In this document: one piece after another, positions 7,641 through 27,236 of the stretch
How positions within the stretch are numbered: the stretch's first letter is position 1
Layout: every line of letters starts with the position of its first letter
DNA from: an uncultured archaeon
Lineage (GTDB): Archaea > Asgardarchaeota > Lokiarchaeia > Sigyniarchaeales > SOKP01
NCBI GenBank assembly: GCA_964525635.1
Contig: CAZGJX010000053.1
Span: forward strand, 1 to 27,643
DNA: 27,643 nt
Direction: 5' to 3'
The notes under the pieces: model-generated
Database searches by the model: none
What the model saw: the letters and a program-made list of their open reading frames with translations, nothing else
What the model was told of the DNA's origin: nothing
Translations under genes and position numbers: made by a program

Positions 7641-10022
7641 TTATTCTATGGAGGGATCAATATTCTTTCTATTTTCTTTTGCTTTTTTGATGTTTTTTAT
7701 TGCTTTATGTAATTTTTCAATATTAGCAGATAATGGAAGTTGTTTATCGTAATTTTTATAATTATGATTAAGACATTCTAAGAAACCTTCCCATTCTATA
7801 CTTTTCTTTTTAGATATTCTAATTTCATCATAAAGAGTAGTAAGTATCTCCTCATGGTTTTGCTCTTTTAGATGCATCAAAAAGTTATTGGTTATAGATT
7901 TTTTGACAATTTGATATTCTTCTGGTCTAAATTTTGATAGTAATTCATTCATTTCAAAATCAAAATAAGGAATAATTAGTATTTTTTTATCATCAGGATT
8001 ATCTTGATTATCTACTAATGTAAGTTCTAAATCTATTAAGCTAAGGCTCATTAATATAGGAGTTATAGCCCCTAATGAAATTCTTGTCTTACTTTTAATA
8101 ACTTTTGCAATATCAGATATAGGAATATAAATTTCTGGATAATCAGATCTGTTCTCAATACGATATTTATATTCCATTTTTAAAATTTTAATTATTTTTT
8201 TCTTTGACCTTATATCAAGAAGTTCGCTTTTAAACGGTATATCTTTTAATTTACTTAATTTTTCAGCTCTTTCTTGCTTATGAATTTGTTTTTTATCATA
8301 AGTAGAAGTTAAGGAAGCAATAAATTGATCAGATGCTTTTCCCGATTTTAAATTTTTTCCTAGTTTACTTAAATCCTTCACTTTTTTTGAAGTTGTTTTA
8401 ACTAGTTCCTCTGCAAGATATTTCTTTGCTTTTTTTTCAGCCTTTTCTTTTTTCTCAAATCTCTCTGTAATTGAGATAAAATCAATCCAAATCCCTTTAT
8501 TTCCATAATCATCTGACATTTCATTTAAAGTTATATTAAAATCCTTATCAGCTAATCTTTTAATTAATGAATATAATGTTGCTTTTGATAATTTTGTTGC
8601 TTTAATCAGTTCTCTTTCTAATATCTCTAATGGAAATGCTTCACCACGCCGTATATATTCGTTTCTTATTAATTTATAAACAACTTTCGTACTTTCATCT
8701 TCTTTATTAACCGTTTCTTTTTGCATTCTGACAAACATTGATGTTTGATGAGGTTTTATATAGTAGACTAACAATGTAATACCAAGAAAAGATATCATAA
8801 GTATAGAGATTATGTATTTATCTGCCAAAAATACATTGCCTAGTATTGTTATTTCTTGATTTTTTATATCATTTGTAAGAGCAAATCTCGCTAGAGTCTG
8901 AGCAAGAACACAACCTAGAAAAAATAAGATTAATCCATCTCTTTTAAAGAATAAAAATTGCCAACCATAAGATTTTCCCAACTTAAGAATAACACGATAA
9001 AGAAATATCATAGAAATCATATATTCAAAAATAAAAATGTAAGTAATAGCAGTATTATTATTTGCACCCACAGTTGATTTTATTGCAGCTAGGGTTTCTG
9101 GTTGTAAGAATAAGAAAACACTCATCTGAAAAATTTGGAAGAAGAAAATAAAAAAAATAATCAATGAGAAAGTAAAATTATCAAAGGTACCAGCTCTTCT
9201 TGTCTCAGCTTTTATCCTTGTAGACATAAATTCTAAAATTATAAATATTATTGTCATAACTAAACTAAAATAGATTAATGGCATAATTACTCTCATTTCT
9301 AAATCAAAAACAGCATGAGCATCACTTGCACTAGAATCAGGAAAAAAATCTAAAGAAAGTAATACTAAAAAAGTCCTATAAAATAGAGAACTAAAAATTA
9401 AAGAGATTGCAATAATTATAGGGAAAATCAGCGCAATAAAATATCTTGAGGGTGAATATTTCTTTATAAATCTATATTCTATTCTTGTAGAGAATTTCCT
9501 AGAATAAATATAGAACCTACTACTTAATATGATAATCCAGATAAATGATAATACTAAAAAATAAGTAATGAAGTTTATACTATAACCAATAATAAAAAAA
9601 AGATAATAATATCCTATGAATACTAATCCAAATATAACTATTTGCTTTAGTATTGATAATTTCCCAAATATAAAATGTCTGATTTTTTCTATATTAATAA
9701 ATATTGATAAGGTTAAGAAGAATGCAAGTAAAGCATTTCCAAAACTAAATGGGTCTCCAAATGCAAGATATTTTATTAATATATTATTAGGATCATTGAT
9801 TCCCCATAAAAATAAAAATGAATAGAATATGAAGATGAAATATAAACCAAAAAACTTTTTTTCAAATGCATAAGATTTTGGGGGTTCTTGTCCCTTGAGA
9901 TAAATCTTTTTAGTTAAAACTTTATCTTTTATATTTTTAAGATTAGTTTGAACACTTGAATTTACTCCTTTAATTTTTTTTTTTAGTCCCCTTGAAGTTG
10001 ATTTCCTATATTTATTAGCCAT
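7641..10022 (-). CDS. Multi-pass membrane protein with cytoplasmic C-terminal region containing two winged-helix-like repeats (function unknown)
   Basis: About 10-12 hydrophobic segments in aa ~55-422, followed by a charged ~370-aa tail with two similar helix-helix-helix-hairpin units. Confidence 0.7.
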   Translation of the reverse strand: MANKYRKSTSRGLKKKIKGVNSSVQTNLKNIKDKVLTKKIYLKGQEPPKSYAFEKKFFGLYFIFIFYSFLFLWGINDPNNILIKYLAFGDPFSFGNALLAFFLTLSIFINIEKIRHFIFGKLSILKQIVIFGLVFIGYYYLFFIIGYSINFITYFLVLSFIWIIILSSRFYIYSRKFSTRIEYRFIKKYSPSRYFIALIFPIIIAISLIFSSLFYRTFLVLLSLDFFPDSSASDAHAVFDLEMRVIMPLIYFSLVMTIIFIILEFMSTRIKAETRRAGTFDNFTFSLIIFFIFFFQIFQMSVFLFLQPETLAAIKSTVGANNNTAITYIFIFEYMISMIFLYRVILKLGKSYGWQFLFFKRDGLILFFLGCVLAQTLARFALTNDIKNQEITILGNVFLADKYIISILMISFLGITLLVYYIKPHQTSMFVRMQKETVNKEDESTKVVYKLIRNEYIRRGEAFPLEILERELIKATKLSKATLYSLIKRLADKDFNITLNEMSDDYGNKGIWIDFISITERFEKKEKAEKKAKKYLAEELVKTTSKKVKDLSKLGKNLKSGKASDQFIASLTSTYDKKQIHKQERAEKLSKLKDIPFKSELLDIRSKKKIIKILKMEYKYRIENRSDYPEIYIPISDIAKVIKSKTRISLGAITPILMSLSLIDLELTLVDNQDNPDDKKILIIPYFDFEMNELLSKFRPEEYQIVKKSITNNFLMHLKEQNHEEILTTLYDEIRISKKKSIEWEGFLECLNHNYKNYDKQLPLSANIEKLHKAIKNIKKAKENRKNIDPSIE

Positions 10023-10321: not shown

Positions 10322-10600
10322 ATGGAGAAAGAAAAATTAAACTCCAAAAATAGTATAATAAAGCTAATCAAAAAAGCTATAGAACTATTATGTGAAAAAA
10401 ATATTTCAGAAGTAGTAATTCTATCATCCTATAAAATATCATCTATATTAAATGATAATTTTGGTATTAATATAAAGACTGACAAGATTGGCAGAGTTTT
10501 AAGTAATTTAGCTAAGAGAAATGAGTTAAAAAGATTAAATACAAACATTCCAAAATATAAATTACAAATATCTCGAGTACCATATCTGAAGTTCTTTTAA
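10322..10600 (+). CDS. Small basic winged-helix-like hypothetical protein
   Basis: 92 aa, Lys-rich. LSSYKISSIL..IKTDKIGRVLSNLAKRNELKR..PKYKL resembles a wHTH with a wing. Confidence 0.5.
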   Translation: MEKEKLNSKNSIIKLIKKAIELLCEKNISEVVILSSYKISSILNDNFGINIKTDKIGRVLSNLAKRNELKRLNTNIPKYKLQISRVPYLKFF

Positions 10601-10630: not shown

Positions 10631-11974
10631 TTATAATTTCCTAAGTATTGAAAGATGATCTTCTAACTTTTTAAGCTTTTCATCCATCTCCGAATATGCA
10701 CTTTCAATATTATTTATTTCTGTGTTCAATAAATTAATTTGATTTGTATTTTCTGTTCTTTTTTCATCTATTGTTTCTTTTATTTTTATTGAGATTTTTT
10801 CTGACATTTCTCTGATATTATTTTCAAGTTTTAAATGCATTTCTGATAGTTTTTGAAATTTTTCTTTATTTGTAATATTTATATTCTGTAAATTGCTTAC
10901 TTTTTCATTAATTTTATTAATTGTCTGTCCAAATTGTTCACTATAATTCTCGGAATTCTCTTTAATCATTTCAACAATATCATTTAGCATTTGTTTTTGC
11001 TTGTTGTTGAGATTATTGATAAATTCTTTTTGACTCTCAATCCTTTGATCAATAGAATTTGAAATAGATTCCCTAAATATATTAGTTAAATCACCTATTT
11101 CTTTATTAAACCAAGTTTTAATCTTAACCATTCCAGAAGAAATATTTTCTTCCATTTGAATTAGGATTTCTAATAATTTGTAGTTTCCATTTAAACAATT
11201 ATTACTTATATCTTCCATCCAATTAGAGATATCTCCCTCAATAAGATCACTAACATTGTTTAAAAATGATGTACTGGCTTTTTGAAGTTTATCTTGAAAA
11301 GATGAATCCTTTTCAATAGTCTCTTCTTCAATAATAGGTATTTCCTGCAAGTCTTTAGGCTTTATTTCAGATATTTCTTCTATTTCTTTAATTAAAATAG
11401 GATTATTTTTGTAAAAATCTTCAGCAAATTTTTGTATCCATTTAAAATATTCTAATGTGTTTGGTAATTCAATTTTATAATTAATTGTCTCATATTTATC
11501 AAAATCTGCTTTTTTATAATCTAAAAGTCTATAAATTTTAAATCCAAAATTATTTTCACTATCCAATAATGTTGGATCACAAACAATACAGAAGGCTTTT
11601 GGTTTTTTATTATTTTGAATACATAAATGACTTTGAATATCCTGACTTCTCCATTCTAATCCATTTGATGGATGAGATATATACCATCCTTTAATTTCAA
11701 GATTTTGTTCTTTATAATTTTCTTCAATCTTTTTGATTAAATCTATATAACTTTGAGACATTCCTATATGAATATCATGTCCATGTGATATTGGAATAGC
11801 ATTTATTATTTTTTCATTTCCATCTTCATTTTTATTTCCCAAACAATAACCTATAGTTTCATATTTTTTTTCTAAAGATTCATGGCCAAATCTAAGTATA
11901 TGTGTAATCATATTCCTAAATGCTTCTTTTGCAATAAAAATCTCATTATTTATTATATTACTTTCATTCATCAT
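10631..11974 (-). CDS. JAB/MPN-domain protein with degenerate JAMM motif (predicted MPN-) and long C-terminal coiled coil
   Basis: N-terminal MPN: MITHILRFG, ETIGYCLG, AIPISHG, GWYISHPSNGLEWRSQD. The first JAMM His is Ile and the conserved Ser position is Arg. About 230 aa of helical/heptad tail follow. Confidence 0.8.
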   Translation of the reverse strand: MMNESNIINNEIFIAKEAFRNMITHILRFGHESLEKKYETIGYCLGNKNEDGNEKIINAIPISHGHDIHIGMSQSYIDLIKKIEENYKEQNLEIKGWYISHPSNGLEWRSQDIQSHLCIQNNKKPKAFCIVCDPTLLDSENNFGFKIYRLLDYKKADFDKYETINYKIELPNTLEYFKWIQKFAEDFYKNNPILIKEIEEISEIKPKDLQEIPIIEEETIEKDSSFQDKLQKASTSFLNNVSDLIEGDISNWMEDISNNCLNGNYKLLEILIQMEENISSGMVKIKTWFNKEIGDLTNIFRESISNSIDQRIESQKEFINNLNNKQKQMLNDIVEMIKENSENYSEQFGQTINKINEKVSNLQNINITNKEKFQKLSEMHLKLENNIREMSEKISIKIKETIDEKRTENTNQINLLNTEINNIESAYSEMDEKLKKLEDHLSILRKL

Positions 11975-13489
11975 TTATTCCCCCTTGTTTGCTTTTTCTA
12001 TTTGTTGTTTAAGTTTAATATTTTCATTCCTTAAATCTTCTGTTTGTTTTTCTAAATTCTTCTTATTTACATTTGATTCATCTAATTTTTTTTTAAGATT
12101 TTGATTTTCATTATTTAAGGTATTTAGTCTATCTTTTAATGATTCTAATTGATCTTTTATATTTATTTTAAAAGCTTCTAAATTTGAATTTATTTTTTTC
12201 GACCTTTTAGCGAGATTAGTTATATTCTCATATGAATTTTTATATTCTTTTTTATATTGTCTCTGAACTTCTTCATAATAATCTTTTAAATCATTAATTA
12301 TCTTATTTTGAATAGAATCACTCAATTTATATAATTCATCAAGAGACTCTTTTTGTTTATTTATTTTATTTGATAATTCAGAGTTAATATTTTCAATATC
12401 TTCAATTTTTGTCATACTATTTTTAGATAAAGAAATTAACTTTTCCTCCAATTCACTCTTTATAATATTTAAAGAATTATTTAACTCTGTTTTCGTTTTA
12501 TCTTCTAAGGAATCAATTGAATTATTAATGTTGTTAATATTTTTATCTAATACCTCGAATCTATCCTCTATATAATAATCTAAACTATTCAAGTTAGTTT
12601 CTAATGAATTCTTCAGGAAATTTTGTATTTCTTCTATCTTTATACCGAGTGTATTTTTTAATCTTAATTGAATTTCTTTCATTGATAAATTGAGATTTAT
12701 TATTTCCCGTCCTATATTTCGAATCCATTTGTTAAATTTAATAATTAAAGAATTCAATATTGTGTCTATTAATCCTGAAATTCCAGATTTTATCGTATCA
12801 GTAATCTTTATTGGATCTAAGTCTGGTATTTTTACCATCAGCTGGTTGTCATTTGGAAAATCAATTTCCCCAAATATTTGTGGTTTTTCATTTATTTCTA
12901 GAATGGGTGGCTCCTTAGTATGAATACTTTCAATTACTTTTACCATTTTATCATAAAAATCAAGTGATTCGGGACTTTCAACTATTGTGTTCACTTCATG
13001 ATAGTTTGATAAATCACCTCTATTAGGATCATCAAGTCTAAATGTCCTAAACCCTAAGTCTCCAGGTTTTTCTAAATAATTATGGTCAAATACCATTCCA
13101 ATAGCACTTCGGTTCGCTGATTGCCAACCTAGTTGATTTCTTATATCTGTACTAGAGAAAAATATGTCTAATCCTGGATGACTATGATACCATCCAACTG
13201 TAAACCAATTCTTTTTAGCAAATTTTTCGTCAACTAATGAAAAAGATACATAGTCAGTAGGAGCAAAAGTCACTTCTATCGAACCTCCATGAGATATTGG
13301 CACAGCATCTTCGATGATAACATCCTGAATTTTATTATTTCCTTCTAAATGTCCAATTAACATTCCCATTACTTCCTTATATTGATTTCTCGGACGAGTT
13401 TTTGAACCAAATCTCAATACATGAAGTAACATCTTATAATAGGCAATAGGTTTGATTTTCACAATCGCGTTATCACTATAATTAGACAT
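11975..13489 (-). CDS. JAB/MPN+ (JAMM) metalloprotease with long C-terminal coiled coil
   Basis: EVMGMLIG and GWYHSHPGLDIFFSSTD form an intact E...HxHx7Sx2D motif, followed by a ~280-aa helical tail ending in clear heptads. Start placed at the ATG at 13489, preceded by an SD-like GAGGT; the ORF track starts at 13501. Confidence 0.88.
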   Translation of the reverse strand: MSNYSDNAIVKIKPIAYYKMLLHVLRFGSKTRPRNQYKEVMGMLIGHLEGNNKIQDVIIEDAVPISHGGSIEVTFAPTDYVSFSLVDEKFAKKNWFTVGWYHSHPGLDIFFSSTDIRNQLGWQSANRSAIGMVFDHNYLEKPGDLGFRTFRLDDPNRGDLSNYHEVNTIVESPESLDFYDKMVKVIESIHTKEPPILEINEKPQIFGEIDFPNDNQLMVKIPDLDPIKITDTIKSGISGLIDTILNSLIIKFNKWIRNIGREIINLNLSMKEIQLRLKNTLGIKIEEIQNFLKNSLETNLNSLDYYIEDRFEVLDKNINNINNSIDSLEDKTKTELNNSLNIIKSELEEKLISLSKNSMTKIEDIENINSELSNKINKQKESLDELYKLSDSIQNKIINDLKDYYEEVQRQYKKEYKNSYENITNLAKRSKKINSNLEAFKINIKDQLESLKDRLNTLNNENQNLKKKLDESNVNKKNLEKQTEDLRNENIKLKQQIEKANKGE

Positions 13490-13746: not shown

Positions 13747-14370
13747 TCACTTATGCGGAAGTGGTTTTCCACAATAAGGGCAAAATTTCCAGTCTATATC
13801 CTTTCCGCAAAAGGGGCAGAATGTCGATTCAGGAGAATTTATTGAAGCACCACTAGGAATTGATGGTAAATTTCTTCGTGAGTGAATAGTTCCTGTGCTT
13901 TCCTCTGCTTGAAAGGAAGTAAATCTTTCTTGAAATGCTTTACGTTTTGAATCTTCGCTAATAGATTGAGGTGCTTGATCTTCTGACCAACCACTAGTTC
14001 TTGGTCTTTTTAATTCATTTTCAGGTACTCTTTCTAATTCTACATCCTTTGTTTCAGAAATAGGAGCGATAAACTTTTGTTTATCCTTATTTTGTATAGC
14101 TTGTTTTACTAATGCTTGTGTTGTTTTCATAACTTGATGTGGATTAATATTTGGAATTGCAACTGTCCTTAGTACCCACCCTACAACAAGATTTTGATTG
14201 GGAAATCCACCTTGAGAATCTTCATCCTTATAAATATATGAATCAATTATATCTTTACCCTTTAAAATTCTACTTGCCCATTTTTCATTAATGAGCCCTA
14301 ATTGAAGACGATAAGAAGTACCAGGAATTCCTAATTGGCTTGTTAATGGGTTAAAACCTTTTTCAGTCAA
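13747..14370 (-). CDS. Hypothetical protein with C-terminal zinc ribbon (two CxxC)
   Basis: Globular N-terminal region, low-complexity linker and C-terminal CPFCGKDIDWKFCPYCGKPLP. The probable start is the TTG at 14370 behind an SD-like GAGGG (14378-14382). The 30 extra codons in the ORF track look like AT-rich intergenic sequence. Confidence 0.7.
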   Translation of the reverse strand: MTEKGFNPLTSQLGIPGTSYRLQLGLINEKWASRILKGKDIIDSYIYKDEDSQGGFPNQNLVVGWVLRTVAIPNINPHQVMKTTQALVKQAIQNKDKQKFIAPISETKDVELERVPENELKRPRTSGWSEDQAPQSISEDSKRKAFQERFTSFQAEESTGTIHSRRNLPSIPSGASINSPESTFCPFCGKDIDWKFCPYCGKPLPHK

Positions 14371-14595
14371 ATTATTTCCCTCATAAAAAGATATTTTTTT
14401 ATAAATATAAAGAATTATTGAATATAAATAGATTTTGCAAAAATTAACCAAAGAATACATCTAACAAAATTAAACTCTTTAATTTATATTTTATTATAGT
14501 AAAAAATGTCCTAAGCATTCTAATTCTTCGAAAAATAAAAGTATAAATAAAAAATCTTTTATTAACTATTTAAAAATTTCTCTCGTCTTAATAAT

Positions 14596-15546
14596 ATGAC
14601 CGTTATCATACCTAAAAAGGTTTACCAGACAATTGTAGCAGCAGTAGTTAGATTTGCTAATGTAAAAATTCCTTTTGATGACTGGCTTGAAGTTTATGGT
14701 GTATTCATTGGTAAAAATGAAGGAAATGATGTAATTATTTCACAAGCTTTCCCAATTTGTCATCAAGAAAAGAATCCAGAGGACGTAATCGACAAGGTAT
14801 ACTGGAATGACGAGGATTATGAAAGCTTTAGCATTATAGATGATGAAGCGTTCAATCGGGGTGAGTTTACGGTCGGTTGGTGGCATAGCCATCCAGGATT
14901 TAAGGTAATGATGTCACAGCTCGATGTAAAAACAACTCTTTCTTATCAACAATTCAATCCTAAAGCTGTTTCTTTAGTATTTAATCCAACCCGTCTTTTA
15001 AGACAAATTGAACTTCCAGATAAAAAAGGTAATCCAGTTAAACAATTAAAAAATGATCCTGGTTTTAAGATCTATAGATTAGATGATGTAAATGCAGGAA
15101 TTCAAGCATCATACCATGAAGTAGATTATACCGTTCAAGGATATGAAAGTATGGAGCAAATAGTAAAATTAAATCAGAAGTTTGTAATTGACATTACTAA
15201 TCTCTTTCCTCATAATAAGATTTATCAAACTTATCAGAAATATGTAGATGATAAAATTAAAGAATTGAACTCAAGAATATTGGGTACAGAAGAATATTTA
15301 ATAACCTTAGTTCGTCAAGGTGAGAGTAGTAGAACTAAAGAGGTTCTTGAAAGCCAAATTAAGGATATAAAAAGGTTTATAGCTACAACTTATATGAATA
15401 TTGAAATGATAAAAGAATTCATGGATTATTTAGAATATAAAGAAAGAGACATAATTATTCCTAAAGTAAAGGATATTTTGGCAAATTGGGATGAATCTAT
15501 TACTAAATTAAATAAAAAATTCGAAGAACTAGAAAACAAATTTTAA
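14596..15546 (+). CDS. JAB/MPN+ (JAMM) metalloprotease, Rpn11/CSN5-like, with C-terminal helical region
   Basis: EVYGVFIG and GWWHSHPGFKVMMSQLD form an intact JAMM motif, followed by SYQQFNPKAVSLVFNP and a ~130-aa helical C-terminus. Confidence 0.88.
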   Translation: MTVIIPKKVYQTIVAAVVRFANVKIPFDDWLEVYGVFIGKNEGNDVIISQAFPICHQEKNPEDVIDKVYWNDEDYESFSIIDDEAFNRGEFTVGWWHSHPGFKVMMSQLDVKTTLSYQQFNPKAVSLVFNPTRLLRQIELPDKKGNPVKQLKNDPGFKIYRLDDVNAGIQASYHEVDYTVQGYESMEQIVKLNQKFVIDITNLFPHNKIYQTYQKYVDDKIKELNSRILGTEEYLITLVRQGESSRTKEVLESQIKDIKRFIATTYMNIEMIKEFMDYLEYKERDIIIPKVKDILANWDESITKLNKKFEELENKF

Positions 15547-19040: not shown

Positions 19041-21245
19041 ATGAAGAATCTGAATTTTCCTTATTCAGCCATACTTGGGCAAGGTAAGATGAAAATGGCT
19101 TTGATCTTGAACGTTATAGATCCTCAAATAGGGGGAGTTCTCTTAACGGGACATCAAGGAACGGGTAAATCTACAGCAGTTCGTTCCTTGGTAGAAGTAA
19201 TGCCTCAAATCGATATTGTTAAAGGTTGTCTATTTTCATGTGATCCTGAATCAAACTTAGATGATTTATGTATAGAATGCAGGAATAAAAAAGAAGAAAA
19301 AAAGATTGAAATAGATAAAAGAGATATGCTTTTAGTTAACTTACCTTTAGGAGTTACTGAAGACATGGTCTGTGGATCTCTCTCAATAGATAAGGTTCTT
19401 ACAGAAGGTATATCTAAACTACATCCGGGTTTATTAGCTAAAGCAAACAGAGGTATTTTATATATTGATGAAATAAATCTTCTGCAAGATCATATAGTAG
19501 ATACTTTATTAGATGCTTCGGCCTCAGGTGTTAATATAATAGAGCGCGAAGGAATTTCAGTAATGCATCCATCAAGATTTGTATTAGTTGGTTCTATGAA
19601 TCCCGAAGAAGGGGAACTAAGGCCTCAAATCGCTGATAGATTAGGTTTAGAAGTAAAAATAATAGCTCCTGATGATCCTAAACAAAGAGCAGAGATAACT
19701 AAAAGAGTAATAGAGTTTAATGATAATCCAAGAGAATTTATTAAAATATATGAAAAGGATCAAGAAAATCTAAAGCAAAAAATGATAAAAGCAAGAAAAA
19801 TAGTTAAGAATGTGAAAATACCACATTCTATTTATGAGCTTGTATCAAAAATTGTAAAAGAACTTGGAGTTTTTTCTCAGAGAACAGATATAACATTTAT
19901 AAGATGTGCTCGAGCCCATGCTGCTTTTGAAGAACGAACCATTATTAATGAAGATGATCTTAATACAGCAATGGATTTAGTGTTTGAACATAGAATCAAA
20001 TCACTTCATTATGAAATGAGTCCAGAAGAAATTAAAGGTAAAGTAAGTGAAGTATATGGAAAGATCAAAAAGGCTTATGAAGATCCTGATATATATCAAC
20101 CAAATAAAGATACAGAAGGACCTTTAAAATATTCAGATAAACCCCAAAAAGAATTTGAAAGGCAATCAATAGATCCAGAAAAAGTTGATTTTCCTGAAAC
20201 AAAAGAGGAAAAATTACCTCCACCTAAATATCCAGATGAAAAAAAAAGAAATTCGAGTCCTGCTGAAGGGTGGAAAGTAAAAGATTTAGCCATTGATGAT
20301 GACTTAAATATTTTCAGTGATCAATTTGAAATAATTCCTTTTATTTATAAAATGGAAAAAAAAATGACGTCTATTTTGGATAACATACGAAAAGAACGGA
20401 GAATTACTAATTATGGAGGAAGAGGAATTGGTAGAAGAATTAAAACCCTTTCTTCTCAGAAGGGAAGATATGTTTCATATAGAGTCCCTATGAATCTACA
20501 TCCTACAGGTATAGCACTAGATGCTACAATCAGAAACTATTTAAAAAGTACAGTTTATAACAGAACTGAAATAGATTTTCCGATTAGATTTAATAAATAT
20601 GACTTAATGGATAAAATTTATGAATATAGAGCTCCGTTAGCACTCTTTTTTGTTCTTGACAGTTCTGCATCGATGTATTATGTTATAAAACAAATGACTG
20701 ATGTTATTTTATCACTCCATAAAGAAGGATATAGGAAAAAAGATAAGATTTGTTTGATTGTATTTAGGGGTAAAGAAGCAGTAGTTTTACAAAAACCAAC
20801 AGTTTCATTTCAAAATGCAATCCAAAAATCAAAATGTATAGAAGGAAAATCATATACACCTATGGCAGCGGGTTTAAAAAAATGTCTTGAATTAATAAAA
20901 ATAGAGAAATTAAAAAATAGAAATATAATTCCTGTTATTTTTATATGTTCTGATTGTGGAGCTAATATCTCAGTAAAATATCCTGAATTGATCGCCCAAG
21001 TTGAAAGTGATTATATATTGATTGTCCAAGAATTGAAAGAGATTACAAAATCATTAACTCATCAAAATGCTCATATGGTTGTCTTGGAACCGAAAAAAAG
21101 TTATGCCACTCAAAATCTTGGTGTTCATCCGTATTCTGCAGATCAGATTAAAAGAAACTTTAAGGATTTTGGAAATGCTGAAATATATCAGTTTGATAAA
21201 TATAATCCATCATCTCTTATTCTACAATTGAAAAAGATTCTTTAA
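19041..21245 (+). CDS. ChlI/ChlD-type chelatase-family AAA+ ATPase with C-terminal vWA domain
   Basis: FPYSAILGQ, Walker A GHQGTGKS, LPLGVTED, PGLLAKANRGILYIDEINLL (Walker B), EREGIS, SMNPEEGELRPQ, an acidic/Pro-rich linker and the vWA MIDAS motif DSSAS. Confidence 0.9.
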   Translation: MKNLNFPYSAILGQGKMKMALILNVIDPQIGGVLLTGHQGTGKSTAVRSLVEVMPQIDIVKGCLFSCDPESNLDDLCIECRNKKEEKKIEIDKRDMLLVNLPLGVTEDMVCGSLSIDKVLTEGISKLHPGLLAKANRGILYIDEINLLQDHIVDTLLDASASGVNIIEREGISVMHPSRFVLVGSMNPEEGELRPQIADRLGLEVKIIAPDDPKQRAEITKRVIEFNDNPREFIKIYEKDQENLKQKMIKARKIVKNVKIPHSIYELVSKIVKELGVFSQRTDITFIRCARAHAAFEERTIINEDDLNTAMDLVFEHRIKSLHYEMSPEEIKGKVSEVYGKIKKAYEDPDIYQPNKDTEGPLKYSDKPQKEFERQSIDPEKVDFPETKEEKLPPPKYPDEKKRNSSPAEGWKVKDLAIDDDLNIFSDQFEIIPFIYKMEKKMTSILDNIRKERRITNYGGRGIGRRIKTLSSQKGRYVSYRVPMNLHPTGIALDATIRNYLKSTVYNRTEIDFPIRFNKYDLMDKIYEYRAPLALFFVLDSSASMYYVIKQMTDVILSLHKEGYRKKDKICLIVFRGKEAVVLQKPTVSFQNAIQKSKCIEGKSYTPMAAGLKKCLELIKIEKLKNRNIIPVIFICSDCGANISVKYPELIAQVESDYILIVQELKEITKSLTHQNAHMVVLEPKKSYATQNLGVHPYSADQIKRNFKDFGNAEIYQFDKYNPSSLILQLKKIL

Positions 21246-21989: not shown

Positions 21990-24410
21990 TTATTTTTTAC
22001 GCATTTTTCTGACAAATAAGCCAGATATAATTATAATCATAAGCGATATCATAAACAAGTCATATCCAGGGATATCATCAGATGGTTCTGTCGTAGTAGC
22101 TGAACGTAAGACATATGCCATCATTGATATTACACTTGTATCCCACACTCCTGTTTCTATTGTTATTGAATTAGTAGCAGAATCGTAAATAACGTAATCA
22201 TAGAATTCTGGGGGTGCTTCATCCCATTGATTTGTTCCACTCATATTGAAAGCACCGAAGATAGCTATTATATCATCTACATCTATACTTGATGGAAGAG
22301 TGATTGTCATTGTGATATTTCCAGTAATTAAACCATAATTTTCAAATAATTGATCAAAATATACTATGGCTGTGCCATTAGTTATAGATACATTAGTAGG
22401 ATTCATTGGAAAATAGTTGTATATGAGTGCTGCGCTAGGACCTCCGACTGCTACGTCAACTTGAATATTAACAGTTACTCCTGTTGAAAATCCATCATTT
22501 AATGTAATTGCATTTGCTCCTGTTGAAAGTGATTGATAATGTTTATAATACAATGACATATAAGACCAATCTTCTCCTGGTATTGGTTGTTTAGACCATC
22601 CATATATCATTTCAATTCTACCAGATGCTTCATCAAACATGAAATGTAATGATCTATCTTCAGTGGAATTTCTCATTTGAACATAACCAACATTATAGGT
22701 AACATCATCGTAAACTGTTCCATATACGGTCATAAAGTTTGAAAGATCAGTACTGGAAGTATCTTCCGGCAATAATATCGGAGGACCTTGAACAATACCT
22801 TTAAAAATAACAGGAGAAAGCGGCCAAAGCGTATTTGCTAATGCTATTGGACCTTGACTATCATAATCCCATGATTGAGTAGAAGGATTCCATCGCTCTG
22901 TTTCTGCGGTTATATATGAATGAAATTGTAGATCTGGTTGACCCGATGGGAGGATAGCTGGAATTCCCATTAAATTAAACTCTTGGAAAATCGCACTCAT
23001 ATTAACAAAAGCGCTACCAGTCCCAATTATTGTTAATCTTAAATCTCTAGGATGCTCACTATTATCTTTAACATATAAAACATCACCAGGATTGACAGAC
23101 CAATCTACTAAAGTCAGATTTTTAAGTTCATAATATACTATACCACTTTCCATTTTCATTAAAAAGTATTGAACTATTCCATCAGCTTTATCGATTTTCG
23201 ATTTTACTATTTCGGGTCCTGTAGAATTTCTTATAATAATTTCAATATAACCATTTTCAGTAAAATTTATATCATCAAAAGGAGCATTCCGAAGACGAAA
23301 AGTATCGAGATTATACATAAACATATAATCTTCCAAAGTAGCACTCGTTGGATATAGAAAAGTGAACTCTAATGTTCCTCCTTCATCAAAATATGAAGGA
23401 TAAAAATTATTGGCCATTCCTATTGGGATATCAACTTCATTAAGTTCATAATCTGTTCCATTCCAGAGAGATATATCCGCAAATACAGCTTCATATATCA
23501 TATTAATTGGTTCATCTGAGAATGAATTTAAAGTTTTATCAACCATTACATCAGAAATACTTGTAACTTCTACTTTTACATCAGATGATTCAGCCACAGG
23601 TTCATCCCCCTCATAAAAGTCATAATAAATTGTTTCTCCATTAGTAACTCCCCATTCAACCTCATCAGTGTAATCATAATCAAAAACTTGGGTCATTGTA
23701 GCATTGACTTCCATCGGTCCATCCATATTAATCCTTAAATATGCTGAGCCAGAACTCATAGTTCCATTATCATAGTAGTATCCATCTACAAAATATCCAT
23801 CTGAAGAATTAGAAAAATAGATCTGATTAGTATTATTATCAGACATATAATAATCAAAACTATTAAATGCCATTTGACCCATAGGATAATAAAATGTTTC
23901 ATTTATAATTGGTGCCAATATATCAACTTCTACACTTGAACTATTTAATGGTAATATAAAGGGTATCCCATTCTGACCTGCTCTTAATCTATGTGTTGTT
24001 GGATCTGTACTGTTATATCCAAAAAGAGCAATTTCACTATTACTATATTCATATGATTCTAACATTCCCGAAGTCACATTATAGTAGCATTGTGTTGCAT
24101 TTACTTGAGAAAATTCATGTACTCCTGACCAGTTGACTATAACATCTTCAATAGAAGTAATGTTATAGATCCAAATATCTTTCCACATCATAGCTACCTC
24201 TCCAGAAGTTAGATTTGTTATTATAAATTCTCCTTCGAAATACAACTGATCTCCCTCATCAACATCCCAATGCCATCCATTTTGAGGATCTGGTTCGGGT
24301 ATAGCAGGTCCTGCTTGAGTTTTTGGAATAAATGAATTTAATGCTATTATTGTGGGAAGCACTAGTAATAAGATTGTAATATATCGTCTATTTTTTTTTA
24401 AAACTCTCAT
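21990..24410 (-). CDS. Secreted surface glycoprotein with C-terminal IPGY (Loki-CTERM-like) sorting signal
   Basis: Signal peptide (basic N-region, hydrophobic core, TQA), many N-x-S/T sequons and three internal modules starting W.V..G(D/E)..Y. C-terminal IPGY + TM helix + RKMRKK. Confidence 0.85.
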   Translation of the reverse strand: MRVLKKNRRYITILLLVLPTIIALNSFIPKTQAGPAIPEPDPQNGWHWDVDEGDQLYFEGEFIITNLTSGEVAMMWKDIWIYNITSIEDVIVNWSGVHEFSQVNATQCYYNVTSGMLESYEYSNSEIALFGYNSTDPTTHRLRAGQNGIPFILPLNSSSVEVDILAPIINETFYYPMGQMAFNSFDYYMSDNNTNQIYFSNSSDGYFVDGYYYDNGTMSSGSAYLRINMDGPMEVNATMTQVFDYDYTDEVEWGVTNGETIYYDFYEGDEPVAESSDVKVEVTSISDVMVDKTLNSFSDEPINMIYEAVFADISLWNGTDYELNEVDIPIGMANNFYPSYFDEGGTLEFTFLYPTSATLEDYMFMYNLDTFRLRNAPFDDINFTENGYIEIIIRNSTGPEIVKSKIDKADGIVQYFLMKMESGIVYYELKNLTLVDWSVNPGDVLYVKDNSEHPRDLRLTIIGTGSAFVNMSAIFQEFNLMGIPAILPSGQPDLQFHSYITAETERWNPSTQSWDYDSQGPIALANTLWPLSPVIFKGIVQGPPILLPEDTSSTDLSNFMTVYGTVYDDVTYNVGYVQMRNSTEDRSLHFMFDEASGRIEMIYGWSKQPIPGEDWSYMSLYYKHYQSLSTGANAITLNDGFSTGVTVNIQVDVAVGGPSAALIYNYFPMNPTNVSITNGTAIVYFDQLFENYGLITGNITMTITLPSSIDVDDIIAIFGAFNMSGTNQWDEAPPEFYDYVIYDSATNSITIETGVWDTSVISMMAYVLRSATTTEPSDDIPGYDLFMISLMIIIISGLFVRKMRKK

Positions 24411-24533: not shown

Positions 24534-27236
24534 TTATTTTTTACGCATTTTTCTAATGAATAAACCAGAGATGATTATTATCATTATTGATATCATAAAT
24601 AGGTCGTATCCAGGGATATCACTTGGTGTTTCTTCTTTATCTGTTGTAGCACTAGCTTCTGAAGATGCAACACTGGGATTATTATTTACATCGAAAGCAA
24701 TTACAACATAATAATAGGTTGTGTCAGGAGTTAATCCTGTATCTAAATAAGAACTAGTAGTTGTAGTGTCAACCAATGTTGAGGGCCCAGGAGTGAATCC
24801 CGAAGTCGTACTTCGATAGATACGATAGAGATCAAAATCAGGCTCAATATTATCATCCCAATCAAGAGAGAGACTTGTTGTTCCACCTGTTGTAGCAGCA
24901 AGTCCAGTTGGAGCTGCAGGGGGCGTAGATTCTGTGATGTATGCTATCGCCGAAATTACACATGACTCCCACACAGTAATCTCAATTGTTATTGAATTAG
25001 AACCATAATCATATATAACATAATCATAGAATTCTGGAGGTGCTTCATCCCATTGATCTGTTCCACTCATATTAAAAGCAATGAAGATAAGTTCTATATC
25101 ATCTAGATCTATACTTAGTGGAAGAGTAATTATCATTGTCATATTTCCAGTAATTAAGGAATAATTAGCCAATAATTGATCAAAATAAACAATAGGTGTA
25201 CCACTAGGTAAGGAAACATTAACAGGATTCATTGGAAAATAGTTATATATAAGTGCTGCGCCAGTACCTGTTCCTCCAACTTGAATTTCCATGTCAACAA
25301 TTACTCCTGTAGAAAATTCATCATTTAAAGTAAAAGTATTTACTCCCGATGAAAGTGATTGATAGTGTTTATAATAAAAAGATATATAAGACCACTCTGA
25401 TCCTAGAATTGGTTGATTAGACCATCCATATATCATTGTTATTCTCCCCGATATCTCATCAAAATGGAAATGTAATGATCGATCTAATGTGGAATTTCTC
25501 ATTTGAATATGACCAGTATTATAGGTAATGTCATCATAAATAGTTCCATACACATCCATAAAGCTTGAAAGTTCGTTACTGGTTGTATCTTCAGGAAGCA
25601 ATATTGGAGACCCTTGAACAATACCTGCGAACATAGCAGGAGAAAGTGGCCAGAACGTATTTGCTAAAGCTATTGGACCTTCACTATAATAATCCCATGA
25701 TTGAGTAGAAGGATTCCATCGCTCTATTTCTGCGGTTATATATGAATGAAATTGCAGTTCTGGTTGACTAGGAGGAAGGGTAACTGAAAGTCCCATTGAA
25801 TTAAATTGTTGGAAAATTGCACTCATATTGACAAAAGCTCCACCTGATCCAAGTATTGTTAGTTTTAAATCGCTAGGTTTTTCTCCATTATCCTTAGCAT
25901 ATAAAATATCACCAGGATTGACAGACCAATCCACTAAAGACTCTTCTTTTAATTTATAATGAGCTATACCACCACTTCCTTTCATTAAGAATGATGCAAT
26001 TATTCCTGTTGATTTATTTATTTTATTATTAGCATTTTCAGTACCTGTAGTATTTTTTAAATCCACTTCTAGATAATCATTATCATGATAATGGACCTCA
26101 TCAAATGGTATACCCCAAATACGAAGTGTATCATTATTAAACATAAATTGCATATCTTCTATTGTTACACTAATCGGAATTAAAAAATTATATTCATTTT
26201 GTGTTTCATTATCTAAATATTGGTGGTAAAAGTTATTCGCAATTCCAATTGAAACATTAGGTTCCCCAAGTTCATAATCAGTTCCATTCCAGAAGGATAT
26301 ATCAGCATACACAGCTTGATATGTCATATATACGGGATCATCAGAGAAGGCATTATTATTCTTTGTAATTAATATATTAGAAATATTAGTGACTTCTACT
26401 TTTAAATCAGATGATTCATCTACTGGATCAGATCCCTCATACCAGTCATAATAAAATGATTCTCCAATAGTAACTCCCCATATAATTTCATCAGTAATAT
26501 TATAATCAAAGACCTGTTTCATTGTAACATTAATAGCCATAGGACCATCTCCCATATTAGCCGCTAAATATACTGAACAATCACTCAAAGTACCATTATC
26601 AAAGTAAGAACCATCAGAGAAATATCCATGTGTAGTATTAGAAAAAACAATTCTATTGGTATTATTATCAGTCATGTAGTAATCATATTTATTATATGCT
26701 ATTTGACCCATAGGATAATAAAATGTTTCATTTAGTATTGGTGCTAAAATATCAACATCTACGCTTGAACTGTTTAATGGCAATACAACGGGTATCCCAC
26801 TCATACCTGCTCTTATTCTATGGTGTATCTGATCAGTACTGTTATAACCAAAAAGAACAAGTTCTTGAGAATTGCCATATGATTCCAACTCCCCTGAAGT
26901 CACATTATGATAACATTGTTCATAAAATACTACAGAAACTTCATTCATTCCAAACCAATCAACTGTTTCATTTACAATAGAGGTAATGTTATAGATCCAA
27001 AGATCCTTGAACATTTTAGTCACTTCACCACTAGAAAGATTTGTTACTATAAATTCTCCTTCGAAATACAACTGATCTCCCTCATCGATACCCCAATGCC
27101 AAGCATTGTTAGGATGTGGTTCTGGTATATCCGGTCCGGCTTGTACAAGTGGAATATATTTGTTAAATGCTAATATTGTAGGTATAATTAGTAATAAAAT
27201 AGTGATATAACGCCTACTTTTTTTTAAAACTCTCAT
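24534..27236 (-). CDS. Secreted surface glycoprotein, tandem paralog of 21990..24410, with an added fibronectin type III domain and IPGY sorting signal
   Basis: Collinear with the 806-aa protein. It has an extra segment PPAAPTGLAAT..SLSLDW..YRIYRS..YLDTGLTPDTTYYYVVIAFD (FN3) before IPGYDLFMISIMIIIISGLFIRKMRKK. Confidence 0.88.
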   Translation of the reverse strand: MRVLKKSRRYITILLLIIPTILAFNKYIPLVQAGPDIPEPHPNNAWHWGIDEGDQLYFEGEFIVTNLSSGEVTKMFKDLWIYNITSIVNETVDWFGMNEVSVVFYEQCYHNVTSGELESYGNSQELVLFGYNSTDQIHHRIRAGMSGIPVVLPLNSSSVDVDILAPILNETFYYPMGQIAYNKYDYYMTDNNTNRIVFSNTTHGYFSDGSYFDNGTLSDCSVYLAANMGDGPMAINVTMKQVFDYNITDEIIWGVTIGESFYYDWYEGSDPVDESSDLKVEVTNISNILITKNNNAFSDDPVYMTYQAVYADISFWNGTDYELGEPNVSIGIANNFYHQYLDNETQNEYNFLIPISVTIEDMQFMFNNDTLRIWGIPFDEVHYHDNDYLEVDLKNTTGTENANNKINKSTGIIASFLMKGSGGIAHYKLKEESLVDWSVNPGDILYAKDNGEKPSDLKLTILGSGGAFVNMSAIFQQFNSMGLSVTLPPSQPELQFHSYITAEIERWNPSTQSWDYYSEGPIALANTFWPLSPAMFAGIVQGSPILLPEDTTSNELSSFMDVYGTIYDDITYNTGHIQMRNSTLDRSLHFHFDEISGRITMIYGWSNQPILGSEWSYISFYYKHYQSLSSGVNTFTLNDEFSTGVIVDMEIQVGGTGTGAALIYNYFPMNPVNVSLPSGTPIVYFDQLLANYSLITGNMTMIITLPLSIDLDDIELIFIAFNMSGTDQWDEAPPEFYDYVIYDYGSNSITIEITVWESCVISAIAYITESTPPAAPTGLAATTGGTTSLSLDWDDNIEPDFDLYRIYRSTTSGFTPGPSTLVDTTTTSSYLDTGLTPDTTYYYVVIAFDVNNNPSVASSEASATTDKEETPSDIPGYDLFMISIMIIIISGLFIRKMRKK

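Follow-up and report, generated by a model that had tools for sequence, protein, structure and literature searches.

The 27,643-nt window analysed here, positions 1 to 27,643 of contig CAZGJX010000053.1 (assembly GCA_964525635.1), comes from a lokiarchaeial genome and carries on its reverse strand two abutting JAMM/MPN genes, an upstream gene with an intact catalytic motif (UP) and a downstream paralogue with a broken one (DOWN). The pair is conserved within one family of Lokiarchaeia, where the UP motif was invariant and the DOWN motif has been lost repeatedly in copies that remain under purifying selection. We consider it probable, at about 0.62, that UP and DOWN are a tandem-duplicated stalked JAMM, with UP as the working isopeptidase and DOWN as its structural partner in a heterodimer, and that they arose independently of eukaryotes. 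Pairs of an active and an inactive MPN subunit form the catalytic core of the proteasome lid, the signalosome and BRISC/BRCA1-A. UP-DOWN is predicted to work like such a eukaryotic MPN+/MPN- pair, but by ancestry it does not belong to the eukaryotic families, and the inactivity of DOWN is polymorphic. No publication describing the pair was found in a literature search that reached few subscription papers.

Paralogy, conservation and motif loss

UP and DOWN are full-length paralogues. The two proteins aligned with 26% identity over 353 aa (E = 3e-25), their family profiles aligned over 417 columns (E = 1e-73), and both scored above the Pfam JAB cut-off of 22.5 bits (48 bits for UP, 32.7 bits for DOWN). 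The UP motif is complete (E39...H102-S-H104...S112..D115, numbered on the 504-aa version, whose start at 13489 is also that of database protein P0001), whereas DOWN reads E39...I99-S-H101...R109..D112, with the first zinc His (His1) and the Ser lost and the Glu, the second His (His2) and the Asp present. In the host genome DOWN is thus an MPN- protein, its MPN fold kept and a zinc ligand lost (His1 to Ile). UP consists of an MPN head (residues ~10–190), a linker and a helical stalk (240–501), and DOWN of a head (~10–187), a low-confidence linker with a conserved LQEIP motif, and a helical stalk (230–446). The UP stop codon (TAA, 11977–11975) is followed without a gap by the DOWN start codon (ATG from 11974), and a Shine-Dalgarno-like AAGGGGG lies within the 3' end of UP ahead of that start, suggesting that the two genes are translationally coupled. 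A promoter and terminator scan gave bacterial-type matches at chance level. An earlier note made from the letters of the window had described two abutting paralogues, a complete motif upstream, loss of a zinc His and the Ser downstream, shared N-terminal and post-core motifs, and long helical tails. Each was borne out: every quoted motif was present in both proteins, and the tails were predicted as single helices.

Full-length DOWN orthologues occurred in most of 100 family genomes, and homologues of the pair carry the names Lokiarchaeota or Promethearchaeota. We read the loci of 69 genomes chosen by presence of DOWN, 67 of which were assessable, and found UP directly upstream of DOWN in the same order and on the same strand in 66 of these 67, which agrees with the conserved synteny expected of the pair. 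In the exception (G017, L070:5494-14362), the genes lie 6.1 kb apart in the same order with unrelated genes inserted, and both are whole. The gap between UP and DOWN had a median of 4.5 nt and did not exceed 15 nt in 52 of 58 orthologous pairs. The two genes were found or missed together, with neither found in G070 or in several genomes of the sister family, where the pair was present in 4 of 14 genomes and three single-contig genomes gave no match to UP or DOWN. Searches of genomes from the other sampled order and from other Asgard classes did not recover the pair. No natural UP-DOWN fusion was seen among proteins of 883–2520 aa, which is weak evidence.

The catalytic motif of UP was intact in all 64 locus copies and in all 117 database homologues whose motif was read. 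Of 70 DOWN locus copies, among which one genome is represented twice, only 21 had the whole motif, and 30 motif states were seen; among database homologues 13 of 68 had it whole, and some copies were completely eroded (NRSND, SSRNN, EIRTT). G039 and G166 are examples of naturally intact/intact pairs, and G164 and G020 of fully eroded ones. Motif loss is therefore not fixed across the orthologous family, and the fixed MPN- subunit of the earlier note is not supported. That note had named three observations that would count against it: orthologues usually keeping HxH, a lack of synteny elsewhere, or no heterodimer predicted or observed. HxH was kept in 31 of 70 copies and the whole motif in 21, which goes half way towards refuting the note by its own standard, and synteny holds.

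In a tree of DOWN built without the motif columns, the earliest branches were intact and broken groups stood beside intact sisters with strong support. The motif states required 6 changes by parsimony, or 11 losses with regain barred (8 involve His1), and two EIRTT-type groups are possibly one event. Of the four sister-family pairs, three were intact/intact. The broken DOWN copies are under purifying selection: the ratio of nonsynonymous to synonymous substitution rates (dN/dS) of their heads had a median of 0.14, compared to 0.10 for UP in the same genomes (13 pairs). Pseudogene decay of DOWN was ruled out by intact open reading frames (ORFs) and dN/dS well below 1. In broken DOWN heads the predicted interface was more conserved than other positions (0.66 vs 0.54, p = 0.003), a comparison that is partly circular and includes kin that are not independent; this excess was seen neither in UP nor in intact DOWNs.

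Origin of the pair and its predicted complex

We built an MPN tree (~180 columns) of Asgard JAMMs and metagenomic eukaryotic Rpn11/CSN5, the latter identified by their motif and their position in the tree. UP and DOWN were sisters (100/99) inside a clade of Lokiarchaeia only (99/95), a second tree agreed, and the sister of this clade was the Asgard JAMM group holding the ubiquitin-operon gene. Approximately unbiased (AU) tests rejected a grouping of UP with eukaryotic Rpn11/CSN5 without DOWN (p-AU = 0.013), while a clade of UP, DOWN and eukaryotic Rpn11/CSN5 was neither rejected nor preferred (p-AU = 0.105). Eukaryotes have been placed near Heimdallarchaeia, outside Lokiarchaeia (PMC12222021). 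Together, the tree, the AU tests and this placement indicated that the duplication was local and independent of the eukaryotic one. The MPN+/MPN- design of this pair is convergent and unfinished, and the pair is not the ancestor of Rpn11-Rpn8 or BRCC36-Abraxas. Between the two origins that had been left open earlier, independent duplication is thus favoured, and shared ancestry with the eukaryotic pairs is not supported.

The UP model matched the folds of BRCC36 (top, by small margins), Rpn11 and CSN5, with a root-mean-square deviation of >20 Å beyond the head. The best sequence match of UP in the PDB was CsRpn11 (E = 1e-12), and the best eukaryotic sequence matches of both families were Rpn11 and CSN5; the DOWN profile matched these two at ~1e-12 and Rpn8 at 1e-5. 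The Rpn11-type active site is complete in UP, whose Ins-1 region is invariant.

Single-chain models were made with AlphaFold2. Both proteins were modelled as an MPN head, helix 4, a linker and one long helix, with mean predicted local distance difference test (pLDDT) scores of 79 and 82 for UP and DOWN and predicted template modelling (pTM) scores of 0.46 and 0.44, which leave the head-to-stalk orientation uncertain. At 0.15 nm per residue, the stalks would be ~39 and ~32 nm long. The predicted UP-DOWN complex reached an interface score from aligned errors (ipSAE) of 0.64, compared to 0.00 for the best of three controls, none of which was a homodimer. The mark that it passed had been attained by 58 of the 80 solved complexes and 2 of the 110 mismatched pairs, counts that apply only roughly to our own alignments. 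At least 87% of contacts agreed between runs, and partner pLDDT was at least 72. The predicted contacts involve helices 1 and 4 in each head and, in the stalks, equivalent positions from ~256 to 386, as expected of the MPN-MPN and coiled-coil heterodimer that the earlier note had suggested. The stalks are predicted to form a parallel, in-register coiled coil. Their hydrophobicity profiles had the same best offset throughout (r = 0.66–0.87), and the hydrophobic period was 3.64–3.68 near the head (11-residue-type) and 3.53–3.57 distally (towards heptads). Charge complementarity along the stalk favoured hetero- over homodimers in one register (42 vs 9) but not in the profile-derived register (16–23 vs 26–28).

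The predicted complex follows the same pairing logic as BRCC36-Abraxas and BRCC36-KIAA0157 (ABRO1), the cores of BRCA1-A and BRISC, in which a pseudo-two-fold MPN interface centred on helix 1 is combined with C-terminal coiled-coil helices and, in BRISC, the pseudo-subunit orders the BRCC36 catalytic loops via a helical bundle (PMC4579573). However, that bundle has two short helices per subunit, whereas the UP/DOWN stalk is a single predicted helix of 217–262 residues; KIAA0157 and Abraxas are fixed pseudoenzymes, whereas DOWN is intact in ~30% of its orthologues; and orthology is not indicated. With Rpn11-Rpn8 and CSN5-CSN6, the pair has in common the Rpn11-type JAMM core and, by prediction, the active/inactive pairing. 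Rpn8-Rpn11 is antiparallel (PMC6043591), whereas equivalent helix 4 residues pair in the predicted UP-DOWN contacts, as would suit a parallel arrangement. UP is not an orthologue of Rpn11/CSN5 to the exclusion of DOWN. PCI complexes have six PCI subunits round their MPN pair, whereas no PCI gene was found among the conserved neighbours of UP-DOWN; a search elsewhere in the host genome gave weak partial PCI/winged helix-turn-helix matches with a model that also rings in control genomes. PCI-type organisation has been described as not known in archaea (PMC6043591). CsRpn11 of Caldiarchaeum subterraneum forms a parallel homodimer in crystals via helices 1 and 4, the surfaces predicted for UP-DOWN (PMC6043591), but unlike UP it has ~200 aa and no stalk, is monomeric in solution and is encoded in a ubiquitin operon.

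Proposed mechanism and alternatives

We propose that a long-stalked JAMM, probably a homodimer, was duplicated in tandem within one Lokiarchaeia order, and that the copies became a pseudo-symmetric heterodimer whose chains may be co-translated. The heads would pack via helices 1 and 4, and the stalks would form a parallel, in-register coiled coil of roughly 30–40 nm. UP would be a working zinc isopeptidase, as its invariant motif suggests, and most likely removes or matures a host ubiquitin-like protein. If one active site was enough, catalysis by DOWN would have been dispensable and lost repeatedly with the pairing surfaces kept, in the host genome through the His1-to-Ile and Ser-to-Arg changes, and DOWN may have been retained as a scaffold. 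By analogy with BRISC, DOWN might order the catalytic loops of UP. A bolder version, which we judge less likely than not, would have an obligate enzyme/pseudoenzyme deubiquitinase heterodimer on a 30–40 nm stalk, with UP activated by its dead partner in the way that BRCC36 is by KIAA0157; it too would be independent of eukaryotes, and its lineages would keep all stages from active/active to active/dead, some together with an all-dead short MPN pair.

Several points weigh against the proposed heterodimer of a working UP with a structural DOWN. About 30% of DOWN orthologues look active from their motifs. Since the predicted interface is symmetric, the surfaces would also serve homodimers; the prediction test can be passed by proteins closely related to a true partner, and because related MPN dimers have already been solved, the pass may reflect likeness. 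CsRpn11 shows that helices 1 and 4 can support a parallel crystal homodimer of a protein that is monomeric in solution (PMC6043591). The host's Rpn11-like gene lies in a ubiquitin-E1-E2 operon on contig C26, separate from the pair, whose conserved neighbours were found to include no ubiquitin, E1, E2 or E3 gene. The MPN tree, besides its limited number of columns, has rows that exclude eukaryotic Rpn8, CSN6, Abraxas and BRCC36.

Other arrangements can be weighed against the same data. Instead of being a scaffold that is neutral or activates UP, DOWN might pair with UP as an inhibitor that damps it, or as a substrate-capturing subunit whose dead site binds a ubiquitin-like protein. In DOWN, His2 (59/70), Asp (51/70) and Glu (50/70) are retained above His1 (34/70), eight copies carry Glu to Gln with intact zinc ligands, the classic trap change, and the LQEIP linker motif, which is invariant where DOWN is broken, has no confident contacts in the complex model. 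However, the many forms of loss, including complete erosion, resemble relaxed constraint rather than one new function, and such a role seems rather unlikely. The genes could also be co-regulated paralogues that act as homodimers or with other partners, for example the third MPN protein of the locus, with the predicted heterodimer echoing a homodimeric ancestor. This would suit the paralogy, the symmetric interface, a control set without homodimers and a stalk charge test that did not separate hetero- from homodimers, but near-zero gaps across two families, the joint presence or absence of the genes, duplication of the pair as a unit and selection on dead copies make it unlikely.

A chiefly structural role of the complex, as a tether or membrane-associated rod, together with a UP substrate that is not ubiquitin-like, appears improbable. 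The stalk makes up more than half of each protein, has the 11-residue-type period near the head and gave sub-threshold apolipoprotein matches, and the conserved neighbours include a probable membrane protein and no ubiquitin-system gene; against this stand the Rpn11-type active site and invariant Ins-1 of UP, its best matches (CsRpn11, Rpn11, CSN5, BRCC36), and the E2/E1 genes that adjoin related long-tailed paralogues in the other order. An origin from the same duplication as the eukaryotic MPN+/MPN- pairs is largely refuted already and very improbable: although BRCC36 was the top fold match of UP and a clade with Rpn11/CSN5 that includes DOWN passed the AU test, the clade without DOWN failed it, the DOWN profile is far closer to Rpn11/CSN5 than to Rpn8, early-branching DOWNs are intact, the pair was found in one order only among the genomes searched, and eukaryotes branch near Heimdallarchaeia and not within Lokiarchaeia.

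The steps by which eukaryotic homodimers became enzyme/pseudoenzyme pairs are lost, and the Lokiarchaeia pair shows a natural series that runs from intact/intact pairs through losses of single residues to full erosion, with the loss always in the same subunit. It makes testable whether obligate pairing preceded the loss of catalysis and whether the dead subunit gained a regulatory role. It also cautions against taking Asgard MPN pairs of this kind for direct ancestors of eukaryotic complexes.

Neighbouring and related MPN genes

The usual gene order in the family is third MPN gene (divergent), zinc-ribbon gene, UP, DOWN, 92-aa gene (convergent) and 793-aa gene (Table 1). The third MPN gene, on which the earlier note was silent, lies 1.1 kb from the pair. 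The 793-aa gene, which probably encodes a membrane protein, has ~50% identity across the family and nearly always adjoins the pair; the sole result of an Atlas search with it was a cluster of 91 hypothetical Promethearchaeota proteins.

Table 1 Features of the UP-DOWN locus (window coordinates).
Feature	Position	Strand	Description
UP	11975..13489	-	Intact JAMM/MPN+ protein, 504 aa; ORF open from 13501
UP catalytic motif	13145..13375	-	Glu39 13375-13373; His102 13186-13184; His104 13180-13178; Ser112; Asp115 13147-13145
DOWN	10631..11974	-	Paralogue with broken JAMM motif, 447 aa
DOWN degenerate motif	11639..11860	-	Glu39 kept; Ile99 (11680-11678) at His1; His101 kept; Arg109 (11650-11648) at Ser; Asp112 kept
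UP/DOWN stop/start junction	11972..11990	-	TAA then ATG, preceded by G-rich ribosome-binding-like stretch
Zinc-ribbon gene	13747..14460	-	C-terminal double zinc ribbon; conserved upstream neighbour
Third MPN gene	14596..15546	+	Intact JAMM motif, 316 aa; divergent conserved neighbour, separate paralogue clade
92-aa gene	10322..10600	+	Conserved convergent neighbour; no Pfam match
793-aa gene	7641..10022	-	Conserved neighbour, hydrophobic N-terminal half; no Pfam match

Farther along the window, a ChlI/D-like AAA+ protein fused to a vWA domain is encoded at 19041-21245, and some relatives (L070, L279) carry a homologue of it immediately 3' of the third MPN gene. In G032 (L048:2-2791), the ORF of the third MPN gene spans at least 930 aa, possibly through fusion with the downstream AAA+/vWA gene or through a sequencing frameshift. 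Two large ORFs at 21990-24410 (806 aa) and 24534-27236 (900 aa) had almost no family assignment, and one of them gave a C-terminal fibronectin type III match.

The host genome had six JAB matches: the pair, the third MPN gene, two more long intact genes and the Rpn11-like gene. Several of these are long-tailed, and with the crystal dimer of CsRpn11 (PMC6043591) they leave the earlier contrast between the pair and small stand-alone archaeal JAMMs incomplete. The host also encodes two candidate ubiquitin-like proteins (C26:13776-14159 and C105:6195-6443) and two E1/E2 sets. A further degenerate MPN-like gene of 185 aa, below Pfam detection, was found on host contig C39 (19144-19701), where by eye it adjoins small-GTPase-like and roadblock-like genes.

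Genomes of the other order have just one such long-tailed intact JAMM, beside E2, E1-like and vWA-RING genes (L074:2350-9368, L078:4661-6620, L086:318-5082, L082:3318-6165). This E2-linked JAMM was the best BLAST match of UP, but the MPN tree grouped it with another paralogue (98/95) and did not make it the orthologue of UP, so it is only a lead. The contig of the host E2 that matches the E2 of the other order (C178) carried no JAB match.

Duplicates and relatives of the pair were also observed. In two sister-family genomes the whole pair is duplicated with shorter tails (~370–400 and 335 aa; L269:2695-4774, L270:456-2634), the upstream gene being intact and the downstream gene broken. Three early-branching genera of the family have a stand-alone intact paralogue of ~295 aa related to the pair (L273:3073-3963, L274:2863-3777, L275:2140-3018). 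A second tandem pair of short MPN genes (~200–250 aa), with both motifs fully dead, forms its own clade (100/99) and is reminiscent of eIF3f-eIF3h. It was located at L035:940-2163, L036:3-1100, L268:2938-4339, L271:2059-3365 and L272:2615-3902, and in G010, G039 and G166 it lies directly upstream of UP-DOWN, giving a run of four MPN genes.

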